Positions 4,789-26,749 of a DNA stretch of 32,336 nucleotides are shown in pieces. The notes under the pieces were generated by a model. It was not told the origin of the DNA. It did not search any database and saw only the letters and a list, made by a program, of their open reading frames with translations. Source of the stretch: Sulfurovaceae bacterium (GTDB taxonomy: Bacteria > Campylobacterota > Campylobacteria > Campylobacterales > Sulfurovaceae); contig JAOZOG010000003.1 of assembly GCA_029933395.1 (NCBI GenBank), positions 1 to 32,336 on the forward strand, written 5' to 3'. Made by a program: the position numbers and the translations under genes. Position 1 is the first letter of the stretch. Each line of letters starts with the position of its first letter.

Positions 4789-4838
4789 ATATGGCAAGGG
4801 CGGAGAGTATGTAATATTTTGGAAAAGGGGAGGTGTCA

Positions 4839-12277: not shown

Positions 12278-12290
12278 GATCTGCAAAAAT

Positions 12291-12313
12291 ACAGGAGACT
12301 CTCCGTCTCCTGT
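12291..12313 (+). terminator. Hairpin after nosZ (9-bp stem, 5-nt loop), no T-tract
   Basis: acaggagac-tctcc-gtctcctgt, starting 14 nt after the nosZ stop. Confidence 0.45.
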
Positions 12314-12371
12314 TACCAAATAACCCCTAAACTATAATCAACTCTTATTTTATATATAATTTTAACTTCAC

Positions 12372-12413
12372 TTGATATTTATCAAGCAGCTCTTTATAAC
12401 TTTGCAGTAGAAT
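12372..12413 (+). promoter_or_regulatory. Crp/Fnr-family box TTGATATTTATCAA plus TAGAAT -10 at class II spacing, upstream of nosB
   Basis: The box is at 12372-12385, centred at 12378.5. TAGAAT at 12408-12413 places the centre at -41.5 relative to a start near 12420. Confidence 0.65.
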
Positions 12414-12465
12414 GTAAAAGGAAATAAAAATGGGTACAATAACCCATTCATAAAAAGGATCAATA

Positions 12466-13248: not shown

Positions 13249-13249
13249 A

Positions 13250-14473: not shown

Positions 14474-15297
14474 TGGAACAGATAGAGAAAAAAAAGAGCC
14501 TCAAAGAGGAACAGAAAAGACGAAAGTTCATGAAGCAGGTAGCAGGCCTTGGTGTTCTGGGACTTGCTTCTGCCGGCGGAATATGGGCAGCGAAAGATTT
14601 CAAGCCGGATAAGGCGAGACTGCGTCCCCCTGGCGCAGTACCAGAGGATCAATATTTGACAATGTGTATCAAGTGCGGTCAGTGCCTGCAGGTCTGTCCT
14701 TACGATTCGATCCTGCTGGAAGATTATGATGGCAAGGCGGGTGTGGGAACGGCCTATATCGCTCCTCTGGAGAGAGGCTGCTACCTCTGTGAAGCCTTTC
14801 CATGTGTATTGGCCTGTCCCACGGGCGCATTGGATCATGAGGCCAATGTCATCGAGAAGGTCCATATGGGAATGGCGATCATTGTCAATGAAAGTGCATG
14901 TATCGCACTGAAAAATGAAAAAGTGACATCGGAGATGATCGGCAGGATCTATGATCATACCAAGGTGATCACCCCCGAAGAGCGCCAAAGTCGAAAGGTC
15001 GAGGTCGACCCCAACGAACCGGAGAAGGTTATATTGCAAAAAGAGCTTTTGCAAAAGCTCAGCAAGCAGGAGGGTAAAGTCTGTACACTTTGTGCAGAGC
15101 TGTGTCCTTTCGAGCCTGATCCCACTCTGGCGATCGGTATGATCTCCAAGGATGGTGGGCTCTTCCCTGAGATACGGGAAGCCTGTGTCGGATGCGGTGC
15201 CTGTGTAGAGCTCTGCCCGACCAAAGTACTCCAGATTCTTCCTGGGGCCAGTTATGCAGATGTCTATCAGAAAAACAAAGGAGCAGAAAATGCTTAA
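14473..15297 (+). CDS. nosG: NosG, NapG-like Tat-exported polyferredoxin
   Basis: Twin-arginine signal QKRRKFMKQVAGLGVL. Four Cys clusters are present: CIKCGQCLQVCP, CYLCEAFPCVLACP, CTLCAELCP, CVGCGACVELCP. The start overlaps the nosD stop (TGATG). Confidence 0.9.
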   Translation: MEQIEKKKSLKEEQKRRKFMKQVAGLGVLGLASAGGIWAAKDFKPDKARLRPPGAVPEDQYLTMCIKCGQCLQVCPYDSILLEDYDGKAGVGTAYIAPLERGCYLCEAFPCVLACPTGALDHEANVIEKVHMGMAIIVNESACIALKNEKVTSEMIGRIYDHTKVITPEERQSRKVEVDPNEPEKVILQKELLQKLSKQEGKVCTLCAELCPFEPDPTLAIGMISKDGGLFPEIREACVGCGACVELCPTKVLQILPGASYADVYQKNKGAENA

Positions 15298-15853
15298 TCG
15301 ATTATGGTTGCTTCCGGTTGGGGCAGCGCTTGTACTGCTCAGCGGATGTGGTGATGACAAAAAGAAAACAGAAACGGAAACGGCGACAAAAACAGACGCT
15401 ATTGTCGTAACGGAGGGCGCCGTCAAGGAGCTCAAAGAGACAAAAGGCAAAGAGAACAGCGGCCAATTCTACTACTCTTATAACAAAGAGAAAAATACCA
15501 GCGAGTATAACTCTGAGGAGAACAAGGTCAGAACGGAGCTGGATGCCTACCGGGATATCCGTTCCCCTTATGAGCGTGTGCAGATTACTCTGATGGTTCA
15601 GCAGCTCAGCCCGGATTATCGGCTGCTATGTTCTGCCTGTCATGACGATTATGCCAATGGCGTGATTGGGCCAGCCTTGCTGGATAAAAATTCGGAGTAT
15701 ATCTTCAAACAGATTATGGCATTCAAGACCGGTGAAAAGAAAAATGCCTTGATGAAAGATCTCGTATCGAGAATCGGTGAAGAGCGACTGAAGGGGATTG
15801 CGGTGGAGATCGAGAGATTCAATAGACAAGTTCAAGAAATGAGGAGTAAATAG
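15290..15853 (+). CDS. nosC1: NosC1, monohaem cytochrome c lipoprotein
   Basis: From ATG 15290 the protein begins MLNRLWLLPVGAALVLLSGC (lipobox LSGC), with RBS aaaggag at 15277-15283. It has a single CSACH haem motif. The start overlaps the nosG stop by 8 nt. Confidence 0.85.
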   Translation: MLNRLWLLPVGAALVLLSGCGDDKKKTETETATKTDAIVVTEGAVKELKETKGKENSGQFYYSYNKEKNTSEYNSEENKVRTELDAYRDIRSPYERVQITLMVQQLSPDYRLLCSACHDDYANGVIGPALLDKNSEYIFKQIMAFKTGEKKNALMKDLVSRIGEERLKGIAVEIERFNRQVQEMRSK

Positions 15854-16389
15854 TGATCAAGCATATTATAGCGGCTGTGGTGACACTGCTGGCAGCATGG
15901 GCAATGTTTTTGGTGTATCAGTCAGACAAAGAGGTAAATAAACTCGAAGAGATACAGAAAATGATCAAGAAGACGCAGGTCAAAGTCAATCTGGGCAATA
16001 CAGAAAGTGTGACTCAAGAGAGTGCAGCGACTGAGAAAGCATCAAGCGAGAGCGTAGAGAAAGAGCAGGCGAAAAAGAAACAAGAGCTTGATGAAAAACT
16101 CCAGGCACTCAAAAACAAAGCAGGGAATGTCGCAGCATTCAAAGTCAGTCCGCTCTATAAGCAGAAGTGTGCCTCCTGTCATGGTGTCAATGGTGAGGGA
16201 ATCATCGGTCCCAAATTGATCGGGGACAGCAGCGAAAAGATCCACCAGGCACTTCTGGAGTTCAAATCAGGCAAAAGAAAGAACTATGTTATGTATGGTC
16301 TTTTGAGCAAGATGGACGAGGGGCAACTGAAGGAGCTCTCCGATGAGATCGGTACATTCGAACAGAAGCTGCAGGAGATGCAGAAGTAG
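15853..16389 (+). CDS. nosC2: NosC2, membrane-anchored monohaem cytochrome c
   Basis: N-terminal TM helix and a single CASCH motif. Its C-terminal part is paralogous to NosC1 (..GVIGP.L......I.Q....FK.G..KN.....L.......L..). Confidence 0.85.
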   Translation: MIKHIIAAVVTLLAAWAMFLVYQSDKEVNKLEEIQKMIKKTQVKVNLGNTESVTQESAATEKASSESVEKEQAKKKQELDEKLQALKNKAGNVAAFKVSPLYKQKCASCHGVNGEGIIGPKLIGDSSEKIHQALLEFKSGKRKNYVMYGLLSKMDEGQLKELSDEIGTFEQKLQEMQK

Positions 16390-16445
16390 CAATGCGGCAG
16401 GATCCCGAGGGATCTTCACTCCGGTGTGTGATAAAAGGATAGTGA

Positions 16446-17357
16446 ATGGACAGGTATAATGATAGTATCAGAGCGCTGGTCAACGCCCCTCTGTTGAGTA
16501 CACTCTATTACAAAAGCAGGGAGGGTAAGTTTCGGCTCACCCTGAGAGCATGGAGATGGTTGATCGTCATTGTGATCAATCTTCTCTTTTTCCTCTCTTT
16601 CCATATTGACTTGCAGTTGCTGGAAGGAACATTGAATGGATCGAGGCTTTTTGGTTTTCACCTGATTGACCCCTTTACTGCATTGGAGATTTTCGCTGCT
16701 GAGCACCACTTCCATATCAATGTGATTATAGGAAGTGTCACGCTGATTGTATTTTATCTTCTGGTAGGCGGTAAGGCATATTGTGCCTGGGCGTGTCCCT
16801 ATGGTGTTCTCAGCGAAATCGGTGAACGAATCAATCAAATACTGGTTCGAAAGAAACTGATCAAAGAGCATCGCTTCAACCCCAATGTACGTTTTGTTTT
16901 CTGGGGTATCTTTCTGGCTGCAGCCGCAATCGACGGATATCTTGTTTTTGAAGTGATCAACCCAATCGGTTATCTGAGCCGTGCGATCACCTATGGATGG
17001 AGTCTCGCTTTTGTCTGGGTATTCGTCGTTCTGGCAATCGAAATATTCTACTCCAGAAGAGCCTGGTGTAAATATATCTGTCCGGTAGGAACCACTTATA
17101 ATATGCTGGGTTGGGTCAGTGCCACCAAAGTACAGTGGGATATGAACAAGTGTGATCACTGTGGCGCCTGCCTCAGCGCATGCTTTGAAGATCATGTGCT
17201 GGAATTTATCAAACCGAAATACGATAAAGAACGTGCCGAAAAGGGTGTCGAGAAGCAGTTGGTCATCAATGGTGACTGTACGCTCTGTGGTCGATGTTTC
17301 GATGTCTGCCATACTGACGCCTATAATTACGAGTTCAGATTGAAGGATTTGGTATAG
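16446..17357 (+). CDS. nosH: NosH, NapH-like membrane-bound iron-sulfur protein (putative quinol dehydrogenase subunit)
   Basis: Multiple TM helices, two CxxCP motifs (CAWACPYG, CKYICPVG) and two ferredoxin-type motifs (CDHCGACLSAC, CTLCGRCFDVC). Confidence 0.9.
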   Translation: MDRYNDSIRALVNAPLLSTLYYKSREGKFRLTLRAWRWLIVIVINLLFFLSFHIDLQLLEGTLNGSRLFGFHLIDPFTALEIFAAEHHFHINVIIGSVTLIVFYLLVGGKAYCAWACPYGVLSEIGERINQILVRKKLIKEHRFNPNVRFVFWGIFLAAAAIDGYLVFEVINPIGYLSRAITYGWSLAFVWVFVVLAIEIFYSRRAWCKYICPVGTTYNMLGWVSATKVQWDMNKCDHCGACLSACFEDHVLEFIKPKYDKERAEKGVEKQLVINGDCTLCGRCFDVCHTDAYNYEFRLKDLV

Positions 17358-17999
17358 ATGCTGGTTGTAGCCAAAAATGTCAGTAAGAAATTTATGGGAA
17401 GCTATGTTCTTGACAAAGTGAATATTACGATCAACAGCGGAGACCGCATCGCGATGATGGGGCCCAACGGTGCAGGGAAAACAACGCTGGTGAGGGCAAT
17501 ACTCGGCTTCTATCATATCGACAGCGGTGAGATCTCTGTCAAGGGTTTCGATCCTGTCAAAAAAAGAGTCGAAGTTTTGAAGCATATCAGTTTCATTCCG
17601 CAGCTGCCGCCACCGGTAAAATTGAGTCTCGAAGAGCTCCTGGTTTATGTGGAGCGCAGTTCCGGAGTCTCGAGAAAAAAGATTTTTGAAGAGTCTGCCA
17701 GGATGGATCTGGATCTGAAGAGTCATATCTCAAAGCCCTTTTTCAAACTTTCGGGCGGGATGAAGCAGAAACTGCTTATCGCTATCGCCCTCTCCAAAAA
17801 GAGTGAGCTTCTGATCTTCGATGAGCCGACAGCCAATCTTGACCCCAAGGGGCGGGAAAAATTCTATGAATTGCTGACAGAGATCGACCCGGCCTGCTCG
17901 ACACTCTTTATTACCCATAGGCTGGATGAGATCGAGGGTCTGGTCAATCGAAAGATCTATATGGATCTCGGGAGTGTGACAGAAGATGAGAAGATTTAG
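17358..17999 (+). CDS. nosF: NosF, ABC ATPase of NosDFY
   Basis: Walker A GPNGAGKTT, signature LSGGMKQKL and Walker B LLIFDEPT. The start abuts the nosH stop. Confidence 0.9.
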   Translation: MLVVAKNVSKKFMGSYVLDKVNITINSGDRIAMMGPNGAGKTTLVRAILGFYHIDSGEISVKGFDPVKKRVEVLKHISFIPQLPPPVKLSLEELLVYVERSSGVSRKKIFEESARMDLDLKSHISKPFFKLSGGMKQKLLIAIALSKKSELLIFDEPTANLDPKGREKFYELLTEIDPACSTLFITHRLDEIEGLVNRKIYMDLGSVTEDEKI

Positions 18000-18492
18000 T
18001 CCTGCCGGCTTCTCGCCAATTGCTTTTTTTGCGACTATCTTGTTTGCGACACTCTTTTTGCTGAGCTTTTCCGGCTGCGAAAAAAAGCCGATCGGTGCGG
18101 TCGACAAGATGCACTGGGACAGGGATATGTGCGAACGCTGCAAAATGGCGATCAGCGATCGCAAATTTGCCGCTCAGATCATCGACCCGAAAAGCGGCAA
18201 AGTCTATAAGTTTGACGACATCGGTTGCGCGGTTCTATGGATGGATGAGACAAATATCCCCTGGAGAGATCAGGCGATTATCTGGGTGACCGATGCAAAA
18301 ACAGGCAAGTGGATCGATGCGAGAAAAGCAAAGTATACCGATGAATCGATTACGCCAATGGCATACGGATTTGCTGCCCATAGTGATGAGACACTTCCGC
18401 CGGACAGTCAGGTACTGAATTTTGGGAAAGTTAGCGAAAAGATCAGAGAGATCGAAAAAATAAACAGTGAAAAGCTGAGGTCATATAAGTGA
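17986..18492 (+). CDS. nosL: NosL-family copper chaperone lipoprotein
   Basis: Lipobox LSFSGC. The NosL-type pattern is present: D-M-C49-ER-C52-K-M54-AISDRKFAAQ...FDDIGC...W..A..A.Y....TPMAYGF. The gene overlaps nosF by 14 nt and nosY by 4 nt. Confidence 0.8.
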   Translation: MRRFSPAGFSPIAFFATILFATLFLLSFSGCEKKPIGAVDKMHWDRDMCERCKMAISDRKFAAQIIDPKSGKVYKFDDIGCAVLWMDETNIPWRDQAIIWVTDAKTGKWIDARKAKYTDESITPMAYGFAAHSDETLPPDSQVLNFGKVSEKIREIEKINSEKLRSYK

Positions 18493-19316
18493 AAAATCTT
18501 TTTTTAATTGCGTATCTGGATGTCAAAGAGTCTCTTCGTTCCAAATGGTTCTATGTCTATGCACTTATCTTTGGCGGCCTGATGGCACTCTTTTTTGTTA
18601 CGGGTGTCTCCGACTCCGTTGTGATGGGTTTTACGGGACTGAGCCGAATGCTTCTGATCTTCATCCAGGTGACGATCATTATCCTGCCGATTTTTATCCT
18701 CATCACGACAGTCAAGTCGATCTCCGGTGACAGGGAGAGCAATGTACTTGAGTATATGCTCTCTTTTCCTGTCTCTCTCAAGGATTACTACTGGGGCAAG
18801 ATGCTGGGACGCTTTTCGACCGTTTTCCTGCCTGTATTTCTGGCACTTTTGATGGGTGTAGTTTTCGGGCTTTTCAGCGGGGGAGAAATGCCGTGGAAAA
18901 TGGTCTTTCTCTACTCTGCACTCCTTTTCTCGCTCAGTTTTGTCTTTCTGGGTTTGGCTTTTTTCCTCTCGACGATAGTCAAGTCGACAGATGTCGCACT
19001 GGGCAGCTCTTTTGTTGTCTGGATCGCTATGCTGGCTTTTATCGACATTGCCCTGATGGGACTGATGCTGCAGAACAGGCTGAGCGATGAGGTAATTATC
19101 ACTATCGCGATGCTCAACCCTATTGAAGTCTTTCGGATCGGTGCGATCTCCCTCTTCGATCCGGAACTGACAGTGATCGGCCCGGTCGCTTACTATCTGC
19201 TGGATACACTGGGAGCCAAACTCCTGATGGTCTACGCGCTGGTCTATCCTATACTTGTAGGCGCTCTTTTTGCTTATTTTGGGTATATTGCTTTTAGAAA
19301 AAAAGATCTTTTATAA
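18489..19316 (+). CDS. nosY: NosY, ABC-2 type permease of NosDFY
   Basis: 275 aa with six predicted TM helices. GTG start in a GTGA overlap with the preceding gene. Confidence 0.88.
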   Translation: MKNLFLIAYLDVKESLRSKWFYVYALIFGGLMALFFVTGVSDSVVMGFTGLSRMLLIFIQVTIIILPIFILITTVKSISGDRESNVLEYMLSFPVSLKDYYWGKMLGRFSTVFLPVFLALLMGVVFGLFSGGEMPWKMVFLYSALLFSLSFVFLGLAFFLSTIVKSTDVALGSSFVVWIAMLAFIDIALMGLMLQNRLSDEVIITIAMLNPIEVFRIGAISLFDPELTVIGPVAYYLLDTLGAKLLMVYALVYPILVGALFAYFGYIAFRKKDLL

Positions 19317-19325
19317 GGAAATACT

Positions 19326-19790
19326 ATGAAAAAGCTACTATTGGCGCTGTTGCTTTGTGCAGGAACGCTTCCGGCAGGAGAGATCAGCCCTGTCGATCAA
19401 AACAGTACGGACCCCGTCTATCAGCTTGCTTTGAAAAAATATCCCAAATGGCTCTGTGAAGCAACACTTGAGAATGGAAAAGTGATGCAGTTTGTTTCGG
19501 TCAAATCGATGATGCAGGTCTATTATCATCAGGAGTATTTTATCAAGCACAAATTGATGGAGAGTCCAATCAAGGCACTCTATGTACAGGATTATATGAG
19601 TGGAGAGAGGATCGATGCAACAAAGGCAGTCTATCTTTTCGGGAGCAAAATTGTCGGCCCGCATGGGGATGACCTGATCCCTTTCGCTTCGGAAGAGCGC
19701 GCAAAACTTTTTATGATGAAAAATGCCGGAACGAAAATTTTACCTTATACGAAGCTGACCAAAGGATTGATTCGCTACCTGGATATGTGA
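19326..19790 (+). CDS. NosL-like periplasmic protein lacking the CxxCGM ligand motif
   Basis: The C-terminal half (YVQDYMSGERIDATKAVYLFGSKIVGPHGDDLIPFASEERAKLFM..) aligns with the NosL paralogue at 21336 (VTDFYTLEGIPAKEAYYVTGSNLFGPMGNELIPFKTEEAAKNFM..). The N-terminal YPKW is retained, but CPVCGM is absent. Confidence 0.75.
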   Translation: MKKLLLALLLCAGTLPAGEISPVDQNSTDPVYQLALKKYPKWLCEATLENGKVMQFVSVKSMMQVYYHQEYFIKHKLMESPIKALYVQDYMSGERIDATKAVYLFGSKIVGPHGDDLIPFASEERAKLFMMKNAGTKILPYTKLTKGLIRYLDM

Positions 19791-19869: not shown

Positions 19870-20400
19870 ATGAATACTATGAAGAGACCGGAACCAATTG
19901 ATGAAGAGATCATACTCAAAAACAATGTCTATATCGAGAGCGATACCGATACCAAAGGGATCATCACCTACTGTAATGACTATTTCGCCGAAATTTCAGG
20001 CTACAGCAAAGAGGAGCTGATCGGGCAGCCGCACAGTATTGTCCGGCATCCCGATATGCCCAGGATACTCTTCAAGATCCTTTGGGATCGCATACAAAGC
20101 GGGCAGAACTTCGTTGCCGCAGTCAAAAATCTTGCCAAAGACGGACGATACTATTGGGTTTTTACCGATTTTGAAGTGCTTAAAGATGAAAATGGTGATA
20201 TTGTCGGATATAAAGCTTCCAGAAAGAAAATCTCAAAACATGTAACGGATGTACTCGATCCTATCTATAGAAAACTGGTCGAGATCGAAAAAGAGGGCGG
20301 TATGGAAGCGTCAGAAAAATATTTGACAGAGTTCCTGCACTCCCATGGCAGTGATATCACGGTGGACAATATGCTCGAAGAGATCCATCGGCTATACTAA
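19870..20400 (+). CDS. Stand-alone Aer/CetB-like PAS (FAD-type) sensor protein
   Basis: TDTKGIITYCNDYFAEISGYSKEELIGQPHSIVRHPDMP...KNLAKDGRYYWV closely follows the Aer PAS-FAD signature. There is no output domain. ATG 19879 is an alternative start. Confidence 0.85.
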   Translation: MNTMKRPEPIDEEIILKNNVYIESDTDTKGIITYCNDYFAEISGYSKEELIGQPHSIVRHPDMPRILFKILWDRIQSGQNFVAAVKNLAKDGRYYWVFTDFEVLKDENGDIVGYKASRKKISKHVTDVLDPIYRKLVEIEKEGGMEASEKYLTEFLHSHGSDITVDNMLEEIHRLY

Positions 20401-20488: not shown

Positions 20489-21241
20489 ATGAAAAAAGTT
20501 CTATTGGCGCTTCTGGTGCTTGCAGGAATGACGAGTATCGCAAATGCGGAGATGAAGTGTGCACCGGGGAAATGTGCGGCAGGCAAATGTGGTGCTGCAA
20601 TGAAATCAGGCAATAAGCCTAAAAAAATGACGAAGATGTTTCAGATGGTACCGGCAGACAAGGCGACGATCCTGCAAAAAGGGGATGCCAAAATGTTCTG
20701 TCCCGAGTGCGGTATGACACTGCCGATGTTCTACAAGACCAACCACGCGGCAACGGTAGATGGCAAAGTGAAACAGTACTGCTCTATCCATTGTGTTGTG
20801 GAGGATATGAAAAAAGGCTCCAAGCTGGAAGATATCAAAGTGGTCGATGTCAAAAGCTTGAAGTTTATCCCGGCTGAAAAAGCTTTTTATGTCGTAGGCA
20901 GCAGCAAAAAGGGAACGATGACGATGGTCAGCAAGTATGCGTTTGCCAACAAAGTCGATGCTGAAGCTTTTGCCAAAGAGAATGGGGGCAAGGTGGTTGA
21001 CTTCAAAGGTGCGTTGAAAGCGGCAGAAGATGATTTTGACAAGGACAGCACCATGATTGCCAAAAAGCAGAAGATGATGGCGCAAAAAGGTGAGATGATG
21101 TATGGCAAAATGTGTCAGAAGACAGACAAGAAGTTTGCCACTACAGCAGAGGCAAAAGCCTTTATTGTAGAGAATAAACTCTGCAAAGATTTGAATCCGA
21201 AGCAGTTGCAGGCAGTGGGACTCTACCTGAAGAGCAGATAA
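20489..21241 (+). CDS. Secreted multi-module putative copper-binding protein: (GKCxx)3 tract, TRASH/YHS-like Cys4 motif, NosL-like domain, Met-rich tail
   Basis: A signal peptide ends ..SIANA and is followed by EMKCAPGKCAAGKCGAA. Next comes C71-PE-C74-X23-C98-SIH-C102. The NosL-like segment is AFYVVGSSKKGTMTMVSKYAFANKVDAEAFAKENGGKVVDF. Met-rich runs include KKQKMMAQKGEMMYGKM. Confidence 0.7.
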   Translation: MKKVLLALLVLAGMTSIANAEMKCAPGKCAAGKCGAAMKSGNKPKKMTKMFQMVPADKATILQKGDAKMFCPECGMTLPMFYKTNHAATVDGKVKQYCSIHCVVEDMKKGSKLEDIKVVDVKSLKFIPAEKAFYVVGSSKKGTMTMVSKYAFANKVDAEAFAKENGGKVVDFKGALKAAEDDFDKDSTMIAKKQKMMAQKGEMMYGKMCQKTDKKFATTAEAKAFIVENKLCKDLNPKQLQAVGLYLKSR

Positions 21242-21268
21242 GAACCTTCGCAGTTGGTGCTTGTTTTG

Positions 21269-21286
21269 CTCCGCACTTCTGCGGGG
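21269..21286 (+). terminator. Hairpin terminator candidate
   Basis: ctccgca-cttc-tgcgggg (7-bp stem including one G-U pair) followed by taaaattt, 28 nt after the stop. Confidence 0.45.
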
Positions 21287-21335
21287 TAAAATTTCGGACT
21301 ATTTGTTGGTGTGGCAATAAAAAAGGATTGATTGA

Positions 21336-22013
21336 ATGAAAAGTGTAGCTTTTTTCGTAATACTCCTGGCTCTGCCGCTTTTTTCCGGGGAGATGAGTGC
21401 GGCAAAAATTGTCAAACTTGCCAATAAGGGTGAAAAAATTGTGAAGACACTCTGCGAGAAAGAAAAACTTCCCGATTCTACCGGTACGATTGAACAATTG
21501 ATACCAAAAATTAAAAAATCACAGGCTTGCCCACCTCTGTCCAAATCAAGGCTTGAAGCCGTTGCCTACTACCTTAGTAACGGCAGCATGAAGCTTTCCA
21601 AAAAGCATATTGACGTGCCTGGTAATGCAAAATGTCCGGTATGCGGCATGTTCGTCAGCAAATACCCCAAATGGGCCGCATTGATGGTGGTTGATGGTAA
21701 AAAGTACTATTTTGACGGTGTTAAAGATCTGATGAAATTTTATATTTTTGATGGAGATTTTCCCTATGACCGGAGCAAGGTCACCGAAATCACTGTGACC
21801 GATTTCTATACACTCGAAGGCATCCCTGCCAAAGAGGCCTATTATGTGACAGGGTCCAATCTGTTCGGCCCTATGGGAAATGAGCTGATTCCCTTCAAAA
21901 CAGAAGAGGCGGCCAAGAATTTTATGCGTGATCATCAGGGCGAAGCGATCGTGCGTTTCGATCAGATCACGCCCAAGATGGTGATGGCCCTTGACGGTAT
22001 CGAGCAGGAGTAG
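21336..22013 (+). CDS. NosL-family protein (second full-motif paralogue), Sec-exported
   Basis: C100-PV-C103-G-M105 FVSKYPKW (nt 21633-21650), then ..FDGVKDLMKFY.. and ..YYVTGSNLFGPMGNELIPFKTEEAAKNFMRDHQGEAIVRFDQI. An extra 90-aa N-terminal region carries two more Cys. Confidence 0.85.
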   Translation: MKSVAFFVILLALPLFSGEMSAAKIVKLANKGEKIVKTLCEKEKLPDSTGTIEQLIPKIKKSQACPPLSKSRLEAVAYYLSNGSMKLSKKHIDVPGNAKCPVCGMFVSKYPKWAALMVVDGKKYYFDGVKDLMKFYIFDGDFPYDRSKVTEITVTDFYTLEGIPAKEAYYVTGSNLFGPMGNELIPFKTEEAAKNFMRDHQGEAIVRFDQITPKMVMALDGIEQE

Positions 22014-22019
22014 GGCTCG

Positions 22020-22274
22020 ATGATCAAGCCTTTTTATCTGTTGGGCGTATCGCTACTCCTGCTGGTCGCCTTCGTGGGTCTACATTATACTTTGAGTGAC
22101 AGAAAAGATATGGTGGACGACATCACAAACATTGCGGATATCAGCCGGATCTCTTCACCCTCTCTGAGTGTTGCCTGGTACGAGCCGAGGCTTCACCTGA
22201 TAGAAGCAGCAGGCAACTGCGCCTATCCCGAAATGATATCGCTTGACAGGATGGATTTTGTCTATGCAGAGTAG
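22020..22274 (+). CDS. Small membrane-anchored hypothetical protein
   Basis: 84 aa with an N-terminal TM helix (FYLLGVSLLLLVAFVGL). The start is 6 nt after the preceding stop, and the stop overlaps the permease ATG by 11 nt. No family recognised. Confidence 0.5.
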   Translation: MIKPFYLLGVSLLLLVAFVGLHYTLSDRKDMVDDITNIADISRISSPSLSVAWYEPRLHLIEAAGNCAYPEMISLDRMDFVYAE

Positions 22275-23442
22275 TCCCTTTTTCTATTTTCTGACACTGG
22301 AATTTTTCAAGGAACGCAGGAAACATATCGGAGTGATCGCTATCTCGCTGGTGATTCTCTTCTTGCTCAGCAGTGTACTTTTTATCTCTTCATCCATCCG
22401 GTATTCTCTGGTGCAGACCCTGGAGTGGGAGCCTGATTTTGTCGTGCAGCGTATTCAGGGTGGTGAACGGGTTGATACACCGATCTCGTGGATCGACGAT
22501 ATCGTGGAAGTGCATGGGGTGGACGAGGTCACACCACGTGTCTATGGGCGCTACTTTTTCAAACCCAAAGGGGTCTCATTTTTGATTGTGGGGGTAGACT
22601 TTATGGATGAGCAGAGCCACCGGGCACTGCGAAAAATCATGAACGAGACAGATTTGAAGCAGTTTTTGCAGGGAGACCGGATGTTGGTTGGAGAGGGTGT
22701 TTCGAGCTATCTCAAAGCACACTTCTATCCCAAAGACTACACCTTTTTGACGCCGAAAGGCAGTTTCAAAAAGGTGGAGATATTCAAAATACTTCCCCGA
22801 AGTGGCAATCTGCTCTCCAATGATATGATCATCATGCCAATCGCTCTGGCTCAGGAGATTCTGGGGATGGGGGAGGAGAAGGTAAGTGATATCGCCTTCA
22901 ACGTACCCAATGATGACGAGTGGGACAATGTGGCGGACAAGATCAGTACCTTTCACTACGACTTGCGTGTACTGACCAAAGAGGATATCAAAAAAGCGTA
23001 TGAGAATCTCTACAACTACAAGGGCGGTATCTTTTTGATCCTTTTCCTGATTACGATGGTGACATTTGTGCTGATTCTCTATCAGCGCTATGCGATGGTC
23101 TATTCGAGTGAACGGCGGCATATCGGGCTGCTCAGGGCACTGGGGTGGAGTATTCATGATGTCTTGAAGTTGAAGTTCTTCGAGACGATGATGGTTGTGA
23201 TCGTCGCTTTTGTGCTGGGTGTGACACTGGCGTATCTCTATGTCTTTGTTCTGGGAGCGCCGCTGATGAGAGAGATTTTTCTGGGTGGCGCCAACCTGCA
23301 CAATGAAGTCGTTCTGGTTCCGGTACTCGATTTCACCGTACTGAGTACCATCTTTCTGATCTATGCCGTTCCTTTTGTTTCGGCCGTACTGATCCCCGTC
23401 TGGAGAATCGCTGTGACCGACCCCAAGGAGGCAATGCTATGA
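22264..23442 (+). CDS. MacB/FtsX-type ABC permease (1 TM, large periplasmic domain, 3 TM)
   Basis: From ATG 22264: MQSSPFFYFLTLEFFKERRKH.., then TM1, a periplasmic domain of about 210 aa, then three C-terminal TM helices. This topology is typical of type VII ABC permeases. The track start TTG 22243 is less likely. Confidence 0.85.
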   Translation: MQSSPFFYFLTLEFFKERRKHIGVIAISLVILFLLSSVLFISSSIRYSLVQTLEWEPDFVVQRIQGGERVDTPISWIDDIVEVHGVDEVTPRVYGRYFFKPKGVSFLIVGVDFMDEQSHRALRKIMNETDLKQFLQGDRMLVGEGVSSYLKAHFYPKDYTFLTPKGSFKKVEIFKILPRSGNLLSNDMIIMPIALAQEILGMGEEKVSDIAFNVPNDDEWDNVADKISTFHYDLRVLTKEDIKKAYENLYNYKGGIFLILFLITMVTFVLILYQRYAMVYSSERRHIGLLRALGWSIHDVLKLKFFETMMVVIVAFVLGVTLAYLYVFVLGAPLMREIFLGGANLHNEVVLVPVLDFTVLSTIFLIYAVPFVSAVLIPVWRIAVTDPKEAML

Positions 23443-24155
23443 TGGGCGACAGTGCAGTGATCGTGATAGAGGAGCTCAACAAGCATTTCAGGAGCGGAGA
23501 GGCTGTGACGCAGGTTCTTCGTGATATCAATCTGCAGATCGATGCAGGCGAGTGTATCGTTCTCAAGGGTGTCAGCGGAAGCGGAAAGACAACACTTCTT
23601 TCAATTATCGCAGGAATGGACCGTCCCAGCAGTGGAAAAGTGTTGGTGGAAGGGGAGCCGATCAGTAAGCTGCCTGACCTGCATATTTCACATTTCAGGG
23701 CACGAAAAATCGGGATGATCTTCCAGCATTTCAACCTCTTCGAGCATTTGACGGCATTCGAAAATGTGATGATTCCACTCATTCCTGTCGGCCTGAAAAT
23801 GGATGAGGTCAACCAGAAAGTGACATCGAGCTTGAAGTTGGCTAATATTTATCACAAAGCCCAAAGTCCGGCAGGACGGCTCTCCGGAGGGGAGAAGCAG
23901 CGGGTGGCCATCGCCCGTGCGCTGGCTTCCGATCCGGATATCATCCTCTGCGATGAACCCACTGCGAATTTGGATCGGGAAAACTCTCTGAAATTCATCG
24001 AAATACTCTCGCAGCTTCACGAGATGGGGAAGACGATCGTAGTAGCGACCCATGATCCCCTCTTCGACGAACTGCCTTTTGACAGCAGAATGGTACCGAT
24101 AGAGGATGGATCGCTGTTGGATGGGCGCACCGAAAATCCATCCGCAAAATCCTAA
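23439..24155 (+). CDS. MacB/LolD-type ABC ATPase
   Basis: Walker A GVSGSGKTT, Q-loop IFQHFNL, signature LSGGEKQRVAIARAL and Walker B IILCDEPTANLD. The start is in an ATGA overlap with the permease stop. Confidence 0.92.
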   Translation: MMGDSAVIVIEELNKHFRSGEAVTQVLRDINLQIDAGECIVLKGVSGSGKTTLLSIIAGMDRPSSGKVLVEGEPISKLPDLHISHFRARKIGMIFQHFNLFEHLTAFENVMIPLIPVGLKMDEVNQKVTSSLKLANIYHKAQSPAGRLSGGEKQRVAIARALASDPDIILCDEPTANLDRENSLKFIEILSQLHEMGKTIVVATHDPLFDELPFDSRMVPIEDGSLLDGRTENPSAKS

Positions 24156-24164
24156 AGGGGCGAC

Positions 24165-25133
24165 GTGAACGAGATACTCTTGAGCAATCAGGTCATCGTT
24201 TACCTGCTGAGTGAATCGGTTCTGTTTGGGTTGCTGCTCATTGCTTTTGTCATCATACTGGGCATACTGGCCAAATGGGACTTTGGCAGCTACTCAGAGC
24301 AGCAGTTTCGTCTGGAGCGTCGTGCTTATCTGGTGATGACGATTCTCCTCTTTGCTTTTGTGGTCAAATTTCTGCTTCTGATATATTTTGTTTTCACGAT
24401 TGACAACCTTTCCGTGCTGGTGCCCGGTGCCATGTGCGCTGCGGGAGTTATCTCCGCCAATGATTACGGTATGCCGCTGCTTTTTCTCAAGCTGCTCATT
24501 CTCTTTTTTCTACTGCTCTGGATGGCAGTCAACCGTTATGATCTAAGGGCCAAAAACTATCCGATTTTTCGCCTAAAATCGTGGCTGTTTATCGCCATTT
24601 TTCTCCTGATTGCCATTGAAACAGGGCTCGACTTTGCCTACTTCAGCCATATCGATATCCAAAAGCCCGTCAGTTGCTGCTCGACACTCTATGGGCAGAT
24701 GGAGGGTGCCAATCCGCTGCCTTTCGGGCTCAATACAACGACACTTTTGACCCTCTTCTATCTCCTCTATGCCGTAGTTGCAGGCGCACTGCTTTCCGGA
24801 CAGAGGGCGCTCTCTTTGGTAGCCAGCCTTTTGTTCGTCGTGATCGCCTACTACAGTGTCGTCTACTTCTTTGGCACCTATATTTATGAACTGCCTACCC
24901 ACAAGTGCCCTTTTTGTATGCTGCAAAAAGAGTATTACTATGTCGGCTATCTGGTCTGGGGAACGCTCTTTGGCGGAATCTATCTGGGAATGATCGCTTC
25001 TGCAATGGAGATCGGACTCAAGGTAGAGAGGGGCAGGGAACGGAAAGCGGCACTGATGCTGCTCAGTATTTTTGTGCTACTATGTACGGCGTATGTTGCG
25101 GTGTATTATCTGCGCAATGGTGTATTTCTATAA
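24165..25133 (+). CDS. Polytopic (about 8 TM) membrane protein of unrecognised family with Cys motifs in three same-side loops
   Basis: 322 aa. GTG start with RBS aaagggg. The loop motifs are PGAMC91AAG, PVSC171C172STLYGQMEG and THKC248PFC251M. Confidence 0.75.
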   Translation: MNEILLSNQVIVYLLSESVLFGLLLIAFVIILGILAKWDFGSYSEQQFRLERRAYLVMTILLFAFVVKFLLLIYFVFTIDNLSVLVPGAMCAAGVISANDYGMPLLFLKLLILFFLLLWMAVNRYDLRAKNYPIFRLKSWLFIAIFLLIAIETGLDFAYFSHIDIQKPVSCCSTLYGQMEGANPLPFGLNTTTLLTLFYLLYAVVAGALLSGQRALSLVASLLFVVIAYYSVVYFFGTYIYELPTHKCPFCMLQKEYYYVGYLVWGTLFGGIYLGMIASAMEIGLKVERGRERKAALMLLSIFVLLCTAYVAVYYLRNGVFL

Positions 25134-25148
25134 AATGTGGAGTAGAAA

Positions 25149-25652
25149 GTGAAAAAAATAGTACCGATCGCTCTTATCCTTTTGATGCTTGCTGTAATCG
25201 CTGTGATCTTTATCTCGATGGCCAAAGAGGACCAGCCCGTGACCATCGTGACAGGCAATACGGAGATGAAACCGCTGCCGATCAGATTCAACCATACCAA
25301 CGATCCGCAGTGTGCGATGCTGCTCAAGACGGACTACAATGCTGTCGAAGTGGCGATACCCGATGGCCGCACCTGGTTTTTCGATGATCCAGGCTGTATG
25401 ATTCTCTGGCTTGAGAAGAAACCCTTTCGGGATCAGGCAAAAATCTGGGTCCATACGATCGATACAGAAAAATGGATCGATGCCAGAAAAGCTCATTACG
25501 GCGTGACCGACAAGACAGAGATGCGCTATGGATTCGGGGCGAGAGAGCATGAAGAGAATGGTACAATCGACTTTGAAGAGATGCGTCTGAGGATGCTGCG
25601 CGGAGAGAACCTGACCAATCCGAAAATCCGAAAAAAACTTTTGGGAATTTAG
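25149..25652 (+). CDS. Membrane-anchored NosL-like protein, paralogue of the 17986 gene with a reduced ligand set
   Basis: It aligns with the 17986 product: FFDDPGCMILWLEKKPFRDQAKIWVHTIDTEKWIDARKAHY..MRYGF versus FDDIGCAVLWMDETNIPWRDQAIIWVTDAKTGKWIDARKAKY..MAYGF. CERCKM is replaced by QC55AM57. It has an N-terminal TM anchor instead of a lipobox. Confidence 0.75.
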   Translation: MKKIVPIALILLMLAVIAVIFISMAKEDQPVTIVTGNTEMKPLPIRFNHTNDPQCAMLLKTDYNAVEVAIPDGRTWFFDDPGCMILWLEKKPFRDQAKIWVHTIDTEKWIDARKAHYGVTDKTEMRYGFGAREHEENGTIDFEEMRLRMLRGENLTNPKIRKKLLGI

Positions 25653-26453
25653 ATGAATTCGATAGATATCGTTTCGATCATTACGGTTGCTTTTTTGGGC
25701 TCCGTTGGTCACTGCATCGGAATGTGCGGTGGGATTATTGTCGCCTACAGCAGTACGAAGATCGATGGAAAATGGTCGAAATATGCACAATCCATTGCCC
25801 ACCTGATCTATTCCCTGGGCCGTATCACGACCTACACACTTTTGGGTGCGATCTTTGGTGCGATCGGCGGTGTCGTCTCTTTCAACAATATTGCCAACGG
25901 TACACTGACAATTGTCGCCGGAATCTTTATGATTCTCGCCGGCTTGTCACTGACGGGAAAGCTTTCATTTTTGACCCAGTTGGAGCACTCCTTTTCGGGG
26001 AGCCGCTGGTATCAGGAAGTTTTCCGACAGGTTTTGCGCTCGAAGTCCCTCTATAGTTTCTACATTCTGGGCCTCCTCAACGGCCTGCTCCCCTGTGGCC
26101 TTGTCTACTTCTTCGCGGTTACGGCAGCCAGTACGGGCAGTCCTCTGTGGGGCGCTTTCGTGATGCTGATCTTTGGTCTCAGCACCATACCGGCACTTTT
26201 CTCTCTGGGAATGTTTACGGGTATCTTTGCCAAAAGCGCTATGCGGAAGAGCATGATGAGCCTGGCAGCTATCGTGGTGATTATCTACGGTTTCTATACG
26301 ATCTACCGGGGGTATGATTTTATTATTCATCCGGATAAATCTCTCCTGAACTGCTGTGAAACTGATGGCGTAAACAGTGATGACAATCAGAGTAAACTGC
26401 CGAAATTTGAAAGAAGCTTGACGGTGCCGGAGCCCTCTACCGGAAAGCAATAG
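25653..26453 (+). CDS. DsbD_2/CcdA-like (often annotated TauE/SafE-like) membrane protein with an HCxxMCGG motif
   Basis: TM1 has GSVGH20C21IGM24C25GG and a later TM has [12 protein letters not shown]. There are six or more TM helices. The start codon directly follows the preceding stop (TAGATG). Confidence 0.8.
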
Positions 26454-26472: not shown

Positions 26473-26481
26473 TGCTATAAT
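26473..26481 (+). promoter_or_regulatory. Extended -10 promoter element TGcTATAAT upstream of acpP
   Basis: tgctataat at 26473-26481, 35 nt upstream of the acpP ATG. The RBS aaggaga is at 26504-26510. Confidence 0.5.
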
Positions 26482-26515: not shown

Positions 26516-26749
26516 ATGGCATTATTTGATGATGTAAAAGAGGTAGTGGTAGAGCAGTTGAATGTGAGCCCGGATGAGGTAAAGGAAGAGTCCAAGTTTG
26601 TGGAAGATCTGGGTGCTGACAGCCTTGATGTTGTTGAATTGGTCATGGCGCTTGAAGAGAAATTTGATATCGAAATTCCTGACGATCAGGCTGAGAACAT
26701 CGCTACCGTAGCGGATGCCATCAAATTTATCGAAGAAAACAAAGACTAG
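26516..26749 (+). CDS. acpP: Acyl carrier protein
   Basis: 77 aa with the [17 protein letters not shown] phosphopantetheine-attachment motif. Confidence 0.97.

Follow-up and report, generated by a model that had tools for sequence, protein, structure and literature searches.

The window, the whole 32,336-nucleotide stretch of DNA analysed here, contains seven close-set genes on the plus strand (G1 to G7, positions 21336-26453). Re-reading of the open reading frames confirmed both the genes and the spacing described in a previous reading made from the sequence only (the sequence-only reading), with successive gaps of 6, -11, -4, 9, 15 and 0 nt; the start of G4 overlaps the stop of G3 by 4 nt. 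For G3, a TTG at 22243 is also open as an alternative start. The block is real and conserved, as had been claimed, but seven genes is not its full extent, since the conserved unit usually opens with an additional NosL gene, G0. The features of the locus are as follows.

4833-5507, +, OmpR-type response regulator (Pfam Response_reg/Trans_reg_C)
5508-6368, +, short histidine kinase (Pfam HisKA/HATPase_c)
6508-7308, +, TonB (context gene)
7384-9396, +, OprC/NosA-like TonB-dependent copper receptor (PDB match to OprC, CxxxM/HxM)
9671-19790, +, clade II nos cluster nosZ-B-D-G-C1-C2-H-F-(G6 paralogue, 17986-18492)-Y-L (Pfam/NCBIfam)
20489-21241, +, G0, secreted NosL-family protein, the usual opening gene of the conserved unit
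21263-21292, +, hairpin in the G0-G1 spacer, 13-bp stem and 4-nt loop
21336-22013, +, G1, secreted NosL paralogue with CPVCGM
22020-22274, +, G2, 84-aa single-pass transmembrane (TM) protein of no known family
22264-23442, +, G3, type VII (LolC/E-MacB-FtsX fold) ABC permease, ATG start
23439-24155, +, G4, ABC ATPase of the FtsE/LolD/MacB clade
24165-25133, +, G5, predicted 8-TM Cys/His protein of an unnamed family
25149-25652, +, G6, membrane-anchored, divergent protein of the NosL superfamily
25653-26453, +, G7, DsbD_2/CcdA-like membrane protein
26473-26481, +, extended -10 of acpP, TGcTATAAT (sequence read), the downstream boundary
26516-26749, +, acpP (Pfam)

The arms of the hairpin stem are 21263-21275 and 21280-21292, and folding of the RNA from 21242 to 21335 gave a minimum free energy of -28.3 kcal/mol (z-score -2.83 relative to shuffled sequences). 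No clean T-run follows on the 3' side and the element was not flagged by the terminator scan; it may serve attenuation or transcript stability. A hairpin had been noted before, although it was placed at 21269-21286 and ahead of the block rather than inside the unit between G0 and G1. Downstream of the block, acpP, fabF and accA were identified by Pfam, and the extended -10 proposed for acpP was read at the expected place.

Upstream of G0, NosZ scored 863 bits against TIGR04246, above the cutoff of 625 bits, and the nos cluster gave Pfam matches to NosD, Fer4, cytochrome c, ABC, ABC-2 and NosL. Its layout is that of the 11-gene campylobacterial cluster, which was delimited without the genes of the module described here (PMC7476070). 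The TonB-dependent receptor had OprC as its sole PDB sequence match (1e-24), and its best NCBIfam model was TIGR01778 (TonB-copper; 3.3e-50, 171 bits against a trusted cutoff of 472). CxxxM (C95-M99) and HxM (H305-M307) each occur once in the protein and do not vary among seven orthologues; these two motifs constitute the copper site of OprC (PMC7558416). The histidine kinase has two N-terminal TM helices with hardly any periplasmic loop, and the heavy-metal subfamily was among the top NCBIfam matches of the response regulator, all of which were below cutoff. Between fabG and acpP, this lineage has a single island that holds the nos cluster together with the copper receptor and the module.

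Two types of NosL proteins

G0 and G1 were both assigned to the NosL family by Pfam (1.8e-15 and 1.5e-28, respectively). The CPVCGM motif of G1 agrees with its earlier description as a full-motif NosL paralogue, the C-P-x-C-G-M columns are at least 85% conserved across 106 family members, and the PDB matches were the NosL structures 7og7 (6e-6) and 7osf (3e-5). An N-terminal extension of about 90 residues carries two further cysteines. G0 has the motif CPECGM, a Cys/Met/Lys-rich N-terminal tail and a Met-rich C-terminus, and we count its Met/His-rich tails as part of the link to copper. The tblastn synteny map labelled G0 upstream of G1 in 44 loci; CPxCGM was present in every orthologue inspected, most of which had 4-7 Met within the last 70 residues.

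G6 had also been described as NosL-like. The Pfam NosL match was below threshold (E 0.12, 13 bits), whereas profile-profile comparison with hhalign placed it with the NosL family (98.6%, E 5.6e-16) and BLASTP aligned it at 29% identity (E 1e-21) with the NosL-positive gene at 17986-18492. By these sequence comparisons G6 is a paralogue of that gene, which lies between nosF and nosY; it carries C55-x-M57 and G-C83. Of 61 campylobacterial loci whose downstream sequence was available, 55 contain G6. The module types G0/G1 and G6 mirror the nos-cluster pair 19326-19790 and 17986-18492, which suggests that, in the window, the ABC system of the module and that of the nos cluster each work with the same pair of NosL types.

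A type VII ABC pair with a small membrane protein

G3 matched Pfam FtsX (2.3e-9), and hydropathy analysis indicated four TM helices with approximately 213 periplasmic residues between TM1 and TM2. The protein contains no Cys. Its alignment profile matched YtrF, BceB and LolC in the PDB. Foldseek searches with the AlphaFold model (pLDDT 78) gave a probability of 1.0 to LolE, LolC, MacB, HrtB, BceB and YtrF, with matches that included the periplasmic domains for LolE (4.8e-14, TM 0.57) and MacB (1.8e-10, TM 0.60), in addition to matches to the isolated periplasmic domains of LolE, LolC and MacB. The FtsX/MacB-type assignment with a periplasmic domain of about 210 residues is borne out by the FtsX match, the topology and the LolE/MacB fold, but not by Pfam MacB_PCD, which was not detected in G3. 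G4 is an ABC ATPase, as annotated before (ABC_tran 6.3e-37); its top NCBIfam models were FtsE (9.8e-60) and LolD (6.1e-58), both below the equivalog cutoffs, and MacB types were also matched. G3 and G4 are a type VII (LolCDE/MacB-fold) ABC pair. ABC systems of this class are known for work done mechanically outside the membrane, not for moving substrates through it.

G2 had no Pfam or NCBIfam match and has a predicted N-terminal TM helix. A small open reading frame occupies the same position just 5' of the permease in 49 Campylobacterota loci and in 29 of 33 long metagenome loci, with lengths of 95 aa in Thiovibrio, 99 aa in Desulfonema and 113 aa in an alphaproteobacterial metagenome-assembled genome (MAG).

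Cys-rich membrane proteins G5 and G7

G5 belongs to no Pfam or NCBIfam family, although its own family comprises 862 representatives at 50% clustering. The AlphaFold model (pLDDT 93.6, pTM 0.90) has eight helices and matched no PDB fold (best E 0.77, TM <0.3), and the sequence likewise had no PDB match. Three motifs are the signature of the module: GAMCAxG (C91), SCC (C171, C172) and LPTHxCPFC (H246, C248, C251). C91 and C248 are invariant, and C171, C172 and H246 are at least 90% conserved. The positive-inside rule predicts that all three face the periplasm, in line with the initial description of an 8-TM protein with Cys motifs in three same-side loops. Some members have Asp at the position of the second CPFC Cys, a substitution easier to reconcile with a metal ligand than with a redox pair that requires both cysteines. 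A G5-Sco fusion or read-through occurs in one G5 cluster.

G7 is a DsbD_2 protein with HCxxMCGG, as proposed (Pfam 3.6e-51); this motif lies in TM1 and a PCG in a later TM helix, and H20, C21, M24, C25, P147 and C148 are at least 90% conserved in 42 sequences. It was found in 34 of 61 campylobacterial loci and is thus missing from approximately 44%. We know of no experimental proof of a role for PF13386 proteins with HCxxMCGG.

Conservation of the gene order

The core order NosL-small TM-FtsX-ABC-G5 is kept in approximately 160 loci (80 from genomes and 80 from metagenomes) in Campylobacterota, Thermodesulfobacteriota and a locus linked to an alphaproteobacterial MAG, and this recurrence shows that the block is not a chance arrangement. 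Within Campylobacterota, the order G0/G1-G2-G3-G4-G5-G6-(G7) was observed in 80 species-representative loci with variable flanks. Read by eye, the campylobacterial flanks resemble housekeeping genes (sdh/frd, thiL, ftsX/envC). The Thiovibrio locus reads Redoxin-NosL-95aa-FtsX-ABC-G5, and a second Thermodesulfobacteriota contig has the same order with a MacB_PCD-containing permease; the Desulfonema ishimotonii locus reads NosL-99aa-permease-ABC-G5 and the alphaproteobacterial one NosL-NosL-113aa-FtsX-ABC-G5. NosL is a frequent, not universal, partner of the core in every lineage sampled: some Arcobacteraceae loci (L083 and L085) carry G2-G3-G4-G5, and in their vicinity neither NosL nor G6 or G7 was found, which means that the core can occur without NosL. 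No description of this combination was found in the searchable literature, in agreement with the sequence-only reading, which had not recognised it as a described system.

Copper-related neighbours

The recurrent neighbours of the module are OprC-like TonB receptors, Sco, TlpA-like thioredoxins, DsbD_2 proteins and P1B ATPases with Cu(I) signatures. In the 33 long metagenome loci, partners were thioredoxin-like proteins (24), NosL (21), P1B ATPases (15), DsbD_2 (13) and Sco (7), and 13 loci have a DsbD_2 gene after the Cu(I) P1B ATPase. Long open reading frames were recovered for 12 of the P1B ATPases, and each of these contains CPC and YN(x4)P, while 11 also have MxxSS and an HMA MxCxxC; together these motifs are the Cu(I) P1B-1 signature. 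The receptor lies directly beside G0 in six loci (L001, L006, L017, L046, L047 and L048) and is encoded with TonB, and also with ExbBD in Nitratifractor. Beyond the Sulfurovum/Nitratifractor group, most module loci lack it.

Comparison with known systems

One of the closest counterparts is the NosL-NosDFY system (structures 7osf-7osj, 7znq), the copper-insertion machinery of nitrous-oxide reductase. Both sets combine a NosL-family Cu(I) chaperone, an ABC ATPase and permease and a periplasm-exposed partner in a tightly coupled operon, and in the window both pair a NosL relative of canonical type with one of G6 type. However, the permease of the module has the type VII FtsX/LolCE/MacB fold rather than the ABC-2 type of NosY, the NosD beta-helix protein is missing and the 8-TM Cys/His protein G5 and the small G2 are found instead, and the module is mostly located away from nos genes.

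With the type VII mechanotransducers (LolCDE, MacAB-TolC, FtsEX, HrtBA, BceAB, YtrEF and YbbAP), G3 shares four TM helices, the large TM1-TM2 periplasmic domain and the FtsX domain, and G4 is closest to FtsE and LolD. Scores are nevertheless far below the equivalog cutoffs (lolCE 52 bits versus 362), there is one permease gene in place of the LolC and LolE pair, and the annotated module examples contain no MFP, TolC or EnvC-like partner. G2, G5 and NosL, in turn, are not known as neighbours of the type VII systems characterised so far.

The island receptor resembles OprC/NosA in its PDB match, its conserved motifs, its TonB and, in six loci, the adjacent module, but falls short of the trusted cutoff for that family; OprC/NosA has no described partner system in the periplasm or inner membrane (PMC7558416). 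Genes of the kinds found in the cuproenzyme-biogenesis sets (CcoI/CopA2-type P1B ATPase, Sco/SenC, TlpA and CcdA/DsbD-type reductant carriers) flank the proteobacterial and metagenome core, namely Sco, a TlpA-like thioredoxin, a P1B ATPase with the Cu(I) signature and DsbD_2, and G7 is the DsbD_2 member in the window; unlike the module, these sets have no ABC transporter, NosL or G5-like protein.

Alternative functions of the module

The sequence-only reading had proposed a second copper (or sulfur) relay; in a NosZ-dedicated form, this would work in parallel with NosL/NosDFY and mature CuZ or CuA of the adjacent clade II NosZ. The module indeed lies directly 3' of a complete nos cluster here, nos genes adjoin it in 8 of the 32 campylobacterial loci for which 5 kb or more upstream was available, and its two NosL types are paralogous to the nos-cluster pair. 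In Nitratifractor salsuginis, the module directly follows the copper receptor with no nos gene in the 10 kb fetched upstream, yet the genome carries nosZ (PMC7476070). The neighbourhood survey nevertheless speaks against a dedicated relay. No nos genes were found upstream in the other 24 of the 32 loci, L047 and L048 have the same regulator-kinase pair, receptor and module (fabG-RR-HK-TBDR-module-acpP) with no nos genes, and none occurs within 8-10 kb in the 80 distant-branch metagenome loci or in Thiovibrio, Desulfonema ishimotonii and the alphaproteobacterial MAG. The published nos cluster also excludes the module genes. We consider a NosZ-dedicated function improbable, and the nos-linked part of the proposal is not upheld.

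Somewhat less improbable, although still unlikely, is the detoxification of copper, Ag or another soft metal, in which the type VII ABC pair would clear the periplasm or outer leaflet of metal or metal-thiolate, by analogy with HrtBA (haem) and MacB, and NosL, G5 and DsbD_2 would sequester or hand off the metal. Most of the type VII systems characterised to date export substrates or confer resistance, and the Foldseek matches of G3 include MacB, HrtBA, BceAB and YtrEF; two-component regulators are common next to the module, and the adjacent Cu(I) P1B-1 ATPases could be CopA-type efflux pumps. The outer-membrane partner in Campylobacterota is, however, an OprC-like importer with TonB/ExbBD rather than an efflux duct, Sco and TlpA-like thioredoxins are cuproenzyme-biogenesis factors, and no membrane-fusion protein, TolC, RND or multicopper-oxidase gene was found in or beside the Pfam-annotated modules (the window, L001, L086, L167 and L168). 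Least probable of all is a thiol-disulfide or sulfur system that delivers no metal, with G5 as a new membrane thiol oxidoreductase like DsbB, VKOR or CcdA that, with DsbD_2 and thioredoxins, repairs or matures periplasmic Cys proteins or processes polysulfide in sulfide-rich habitats. The CxxC-type motif, CC and lone Cys on the periplasmic loops of G5 would suit such an enzyme, as would the DsbD_2 and TlpA-like AhpC-TSA thioredoxin partners and the thioredoxin fold of Sco, and many hosts live by oxidising or disproportionating sulfur or by reducing sulfate. But this leaves the frequent NosL, the Cu(I) P1B ATPase and the OprC-like receptor without explanation, the Asp in place of the second CPFC Cys recurs in several members, the PDB search with the G5 model brought up none of the DsbB, VKOR or CcdA folds, and the family also occurs in an alphaproteobacterial soil and water lineage. 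The sulfur alternative of the original relay proposal likewise found no specific support, whereas the link to copper is strong (Cu(I)-type P1B ATPase, Sco and OprC-like receptor).

A proposed model for periplasmic copper trafficking

We favour, at a probability of roughly 0.55, the interpretation that G0-G7 form a self-contained operon for ATP-driven trafficking of copper in the periplasm, be it supply or removal, which is general and not specific to nos. Cu(I) would enter the periplasm through the OprC-like TonB receptor, or in other lineages through the Cu(I) P1B ATPase, and be captured by soluble G0 and G1 at their CPxCGM sites and Met-rich tails. These would hand it, possibly through membrane-anchored G6, to the Cys/His site of G5, which may serve as the metal platform of a putative G2-G3-G4-G5 complex, as NosD does for NosFY. 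We infer this physical complex solely from the gene order and from coding regions that overlap or nearly abut. G4 would hydrolyse ATP and the periplasmic domain of G3 would transmit the resulting work to drive Cu(I), by loading or release, toward cuproenzymes of the periplasm or membrane, with NosZ (through its own NosL/NosDFY) and haem-copper oxidases as candidate recipients. G7 here, and TlpA-like thioredoxins or Sco elsewhere, may keep the thiol ligands reduced or carry copper. The type VII ABC systems of known role act on lipoproteins, peptides, haem and cell-wall hydrolases; we know of none that acts on a metal ion, which counts against the copper reading.

The proposed logic of a NosL chaperone with an ABC motor of a different class recurs across lineages with the type VII fold and is supported, whereas its specificity for nos is not. 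Most likely, this widespread operon of NosL proteins, a LolCDE/MacB-type ABC motor and a new Cys-rich membrane protein moves copper in the periplasm generally, and its function is best read as general periplasmic Cu(I) trafficking rather than as that of a private helper of the neighbouring nitrous-oxide reductase.

Gene content of the module

The module under study consists of seven forward-strand open reading frames, G1 to G7, with gaps of 6, -11, -4, 9, 15 and 0 nt, exactly as the sequence-only reading had described. A further gene, G0, lies upstream of G1 in most related loci. The genes in the window are:

20489-21241, forward strand, G0, NosL
21336-22013, forward strand, G1, NosL paralogue
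22020-22274, forward strand, G2, transmembrane protein of 84 amino acids
22264-23442, forward strand, G3, FtsX permease
23439-24155, forward strand, G4, ABC ATPase
24165-25133, forward strand, G5, Cys-containing protein with eight transmembrane helices
25149-25652, forward strand, G6, NosL-like anchored protein
25653-26453, forward strand, G7, DsbD_2 protein

Profile searches confirmed four of the assigned families, namely NosL for G1 (PF05573, 100.2 bits, 1.5e-28; Pfam gathering score 24 bits), FtsX for G3 (PF02687, 37.8 bits, 2.3e-9; cutoff 25.5 bits), ABC ATPase for G4 and DsbD_2 for G7 (PF13386, 174.3 bits, 3.6e-51; gathering score 24.9). No Pfam or NCBIfam family was assigned at normal thresholds to G2, G5 or G6, the first two being without a match in either collection. 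The permease start at ATG 22264 was also picked by gene callers on identical metagenome contigs. The extended -10 element of acpP was found where expected, downstream of the unit (26473-26481). The hairpin that had been placed ahead of the unit is present, although it is longer (13-bp stem, 21263-21292) and lies within the unit, in the spacer between G0 and G1. It is GC-rich (z -2.8), and a clean T-run is absent downstream. Such a hairpin could lower read-through, leaving the first chaperone in excess over the transporter.

The permease and its ATPase

Four transmembrane helices were predicted in G3 (residues 22-40, 254-272, 311-329 and 359-377), with a large periplasmic domain separating the first two, and the secondary structure of the AlphaFold model, which is of moderate confidence (pLDDT 78), is consistent with this prediction. 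The earlier reading had assigned G3 to the MacB type. The MacB_PCD profile (PF12704) was undetected in the window protein by Pfam, and the likeness to MacB was found at the level of the fold instead. Foldseek matched the model to LolE (4.8e-14) and MacB (1.8e-10), and also to HrtB, BceB, YtrF, YbbP and FtsX, while the periplasmic part matched the isolated periplasmic domains of LolE, LolC and MacB (TMt 0.5-0.6 for the entries 5udf, 3ftj and 5naa, not listed in the order of the names). By these matches to solved members, the model identifies G3 as a type VII ABC permease. The closest NCBIfam models of the G4 ATPase are of the FtsE, LolD and MacB types.

By its modelled fold, the module is a type VII ABC system, yet it lies outside LolCDE, MacAB, FtsEX and the other named subfamilies. 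In MacAB-TolC the ATPase is fused to the N-terminus of MacB, whereas it is a separate gene in the module, and no HlyD/MFP family member was found among G0-G7 and the flanks in the window and four comparison loci (L001, from Nitratifractor salsuginis; L086, from Thiovibrio; L167 and L168). LolCDE has two permease paralogues, whereas the module has one permease gene, and scores against the LolCDE models were below equivalog level (TIGR02212, 52 bits versus a cutoff of 362; TIGR02211, 196 versus 308). In the Thiovibrio locus (L086, 3032-6719) and a second Thermodesulfobacteriota contig, the region directly upstream of the module encodes another permease, of the FtsX/MacB_PCD kind and in divergent orientation, together with an ABC ATPase and a protein of about 386 amino acids that has no annotation.

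NosL-family proteins

Besides its Pfam match, G1 matched the solved NosL structures 7og7 and 7osf in a PDB sequence search, and G0 scored 57.9 bits against the NosL profile (gathering score 24 bits). The metal-binding motif region reads CPVCGM in G1 and CPECGM in G0, and the C-P-x-C-G-M columns are at least 85% conserved in an alignment of 106 NosL-family sequences. The module NosL proteins are candidates for binding Cu(I) and delivering it to an ABC-linked acceptor.

The mature N-terminus of the window G0 is EMKCAPGKCAAGKCGAAMK, a repeat of the GKC type, in place of which the orthologues have Met/His/Lys-rich tails; the last 70 residues of most orthologues contain 4-7 Met. Met-rich C-termini and Met/His/Lys-rich tails are typical of periplasmic Cu(I) proteins, and the G0 tails resemble low-complexity segments that bind Cu(I). 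The Cys-rich tail was also considered as a HvfA/bufferin-like RiPP precursor; this candidate was dropped, the tail being variable among orthologues and a maturase gene being absent.

The description of G6 as NosL-like held at the superfamily level and not at the level of the Pfam family. Its score against Pfam NosL was 13.2 bits (E 0.12), below the 24-bit gathering score, and of the NosL motif only C-x-M is left. Because of this sub-threshold score, the link rests on paralogy and on profile-profile comparison: hhalign of 74 G6-type proteins against the 106 NosL-type proteins gave a probability of 98.6% (E 5.6e-16), and G6 shares 29% identity (E 1e-21) with the product of 17986-18492, which itself narrowly exceeds the Pfam NosL threshold (25.5 bits versus 24). 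Judged from these comparisons, G6 is a NosL relative at superfamily level only. In a Sulfurovum MAG, G7 is followed by another G6-type gene, which directly precedes acpP.

The gene 17986-18492 lies between nosF and nosY and encodes a 168-aa "hypothetical" protein with a lipobox (LSFSGC) and a CERCKM motif. The gene in the nosL position (19326-19790) passes Pfam NosL, although the CxxC motif was found in 0 of 11 orthologues. The 168-aa paralogue of G6 may be the protein that in fact serves as the copper-binding NosL in the nos clusters of Campylobacterota.

G5, G2 and G7

The model of G5 has eight transmembrane helices (pLDDT 93.6), with Lys and Arg clustered on loops 37-54, 125-138, 211-215 and 283-292. 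Given these loops, the positive-inside rule, read from the sequence and not from a computed prediction, places both termini and all three Cys motifs on the periplasmic side. The motifs GAMCAxG, SCC and HxCPF(C/D) are near-universal in the family. The last Cys of HxCPFC is occasionally replaced by Asp, which favours a putative set of metal ligands over an obligatory redox CxxC. Neither a fold relative (Foldseek, best E 0.77) nor a sequence relative of G5 was found in the PDB, and G2 likewise gave no sequence match there.

The G5 family comprises 862 representatives at 50% clustering, and one G5 cluster contains a fusion with, or read-through into, Sco. Named homologues of G5 and G2 carry only the label "hypothetical protein". 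By these sequence searches, G5 and G2 are two undescribed protein families, and G5 is the best marker of the module. Conservation in G7 reaches at least 90% at H20, C21, M24, C25, P147 and C148, and no solved relative was found in the PDB.

Distribution and gene order

A species-level scan (one genome per species), using a G5 alignment narrower than the full 44-sequence set, identified 560 relatives. The best 80 loci, which were analyzed by tblastn and ORF clustering, were all from Campylobacterota (Sulfurovum, Nitratifractor, Sulfurimonadaceae, Sulfurospirillum and Arcobacteraceae). The order (G0)-G1-G2-G3-G4-G5-G6-(G7) was kept throughout, while the flanks differed and included, by eye, sdh/frd, thiL, L,D-transpeptidase, ftsX/envC and ppa genes. 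Two Aliarcobacter loci (L083 and L085, about 7.9-11 kb) contained only a G2-like ORF and G3-G4-G5, with no NosL, G6 or DsbD_2 detected in the locus; by their gene content, a minimal unit may work without a linked NosL.

In 32 campylobacterial loci the sequence extends 5 kb or more beyond the upstream end of the module; nos genes were located there in 8 of them, a copper receptor in 3 and neither in 21. The receptor of Nitratifractor salsuginis lies immediately next to G0, and the 10 kb fetched upstream contained no nos genes; the genome does carry nosZ (PMC7476070). The campylobacterial nos cluster has been delimited as eleven genes, with G0-G7 not among them (PMC7476070).

A profile of distant G5 representatives retrieved Thermodesulfobacteriota, and look-ups of G5 clusters added Desulfonema ishimotonii and the alphaproteobacterium Pinisolibacter.

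Gene order of the module outside Campylobacterota
Thiovibrio sp. JS02: Redoxin-NosL-95aa-FtsX-ABC-G5
Second Thermodesulfobacteriota contig: order as in Thiovibrio; permease bears MacB_PCD
Desulfonema ishimotonii: NosL-99aa-permease-ABC-G5, surrounded by unrelated genes
Alphaproteobacterial MAG: NosL-NosL-113aa-FtsX-ABC-G5

A metagenome scan with the distant G5 branch added 80 further loci, and the 33 of at least 9 kb were tallied.

Genes in the 33 long metagenome loci (at least 9 kb)
G5: 33/33
ABC ATPase: 32/33
G2: 29/33
G3: 29/33
TlpA-like thioredoxin (AhpC-TSA/Redoxin): 24/33
NosL: 21/33
Second NosL-like gene: 19/33
P1B ATPase: 15/33
DsbD_2: 13/33
Sco: 7/33
nos genes: 0/33

All 12 P1B ATPases recovered as long ORFs contained CPC and YN(x4)P, and 11 of these also contained MxxSS and the HMA motif MxCxxC, features that we take, following the established classification, as the Cu(I) P1B-1 signature.

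Layout of the island

The window also holds a true nos cluster upstream of the module, including NosD (13250-14473) and an ABC2_membrane protein (18489-19316). From left to right the gene order is:

left part: fabG, response regulator, histidine kinase, TonB, TonB-dependent receptor
nos cluster: nosZ-B-D-G-C1-C2-H-F-(G6 paralogue)-Y-L
right part: PAS protein, G0-G7, acpP-fabF-accA

NosZ is of the Sec-type clade II with a fused cytochrome c (863 bits). The genes from the regulators to G7, including TonB, the copper receptor and nos, form an island of about 22 kb (3841-26749) between fabG and acpP, two fatty-acid genes that are usually adjacent. In two comparison loci (L047 and L048) the order is fabG-RR-HK-(TonB)-receptor-module-acpP, and nos genes are entirely absent. 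Since the same insertion occurs there without nos, the gene order suggests that nos was inserted secondarily, or else lost, at the junction of the receptor and G0. The module is a self-contained mobile unit, distinct from nos.

The receptor has the TonB-dependent plug and barrel Pfam domains, and its only PDB relative is OprC; its score against the best NCBIfam model, the TonB-dependent copper receptor TIGR01778, was 171 bits, below the 472-bit cutoff. CxxxM and HxM each occur once in its sequence and are invariant across seven orthologues; they form a candidate copper site. The Cu(I) site of OprC is CxxxM-HxM, according to a review (PMC7558416).

The histidine kinase (5508-6368) has two N-terminal transmembrane helices and almost no periplasmic loop and is therefore an intramembrane-sensing kinase. 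Sensing by way of FtsX-type (BceAB) transporters is known for such kinases, and a Bce-like partnership with G3-G4 is conceivable, if speculative. A PAS-only protein of 176 amino acids (19870-20400) lies between nosL and G0. At least eight related loci share this placement, and the protein is a possible sensor or regulator of the nos/module junction.

Proposed function and alternatives

We classify the module as a probable chaperone plus ABC motor for copper with two undescribed protein families. The mechanism builds on the conserved five-gene core, the type VII permease fold and the periplasmic Cys/His residues read from the G5 sequence. Copper-specific neighbours occur in three independent configurations. 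The first is an OprC-like importer, the second combines Sco and DsbD_2 with a TlpA-like thioredoxin and a Cu(I) P1B ATPase, and the third is NosL, which recurs throughout. We infer that G2-G3-G4-G5 form a complex and that G5 provides a metal site. NosL proteins would shuttle Cu(I) to or from this site, and ATP hydrolysis by the G3-G4 motor, probably with G2, would be coupled to loading or release, a step analogous to the docking of NosL on NosDFY. DsbD_2, TlpA-like proteins or Sco would maintain the ligand thiols in the reduced state or pass copper on. The sequence-only reading had recognized this chaperone-plus-motor logic, and the likeness to NosL-NosDFY, with a different ABC class, stands. 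NosL-NosDFY is closest in working mode, but the module contains neither a NosD beta-helix protein nor an ABC-2 type NosY permease and is therefore not a member of that system.

We assign a probability of roughly 0.55 to a role of this kind in copper trafficking and supply. Type VII systems are usually exporters, which would fit detoxification of copper or another soft metal; we regard this role as unlikely. The proposal of a nos-adjacent second relay had tied the module to N2O reduction, and a dedication to NosZ would agree with the layout of the window. Proximity to nos in the window should not be taken for nos specificity, however, and nos specificity was not borne out by the 8 of 32 campylobacterial and 0 of 33 metagenome loci with nos genes, so that a NosZ-dedicated role appears improbable. 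A pure thiol or sulfur function, the other option raised from sequence, would call on the Cys motifs as such, and given the Asp variant of G5 it is the least probable of these roles. More tentatively than for copper supply itself, NosL-G2-G3-G4-G5 might represent an unrecognized, widespread class of metal-handling systems, in which a type VII mechanotransducer, driven by ATP from the cytoplasm, would load Cu(I) onto the Cys/His site of the new-fold G5 or release it there. Such a class would serve general, NosDFY-independent metalation of periplasmic cuproenzymes in copper-poor (sulfidic or anoxic) habitats and would provide OprC/NosA-type import with the periplasmic partner that it lacks so far.

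The impression that the combination was undescribed agrees with our literature searches (NosL with FtsX, MacB, LolCDE or type VII ABC, TonB, DsbD and P-type ATPase), which found no account of the cluster, although incomplete coverage of the literature makes this weak evidence. In a 2020 review on copper homeostasis in bacteria, FtsX-type transporters and DsbD-type proteins both go unmentioned in this connection.

If correct, the proposal would add metal ions to the range of type VII ABC function and give a role to the unannotated G5 family, with about 860 sequence clusters and no solved structural relative. How copper reaches periplasmic cuproenzymes from importers in the outer membrane or from P1B exporters is understood only in part, and to our knowledge NosL-NosDFY is the only case of ATP-driven copper insertion. 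The module would then be a second NosL-plus-ABC system, far more widely distributed and built on the LolCDE/MacB mechanotransmission fold, and would matter for N2O reduction and for microaerobic respiration in sulfidic, copper-scarce environments.
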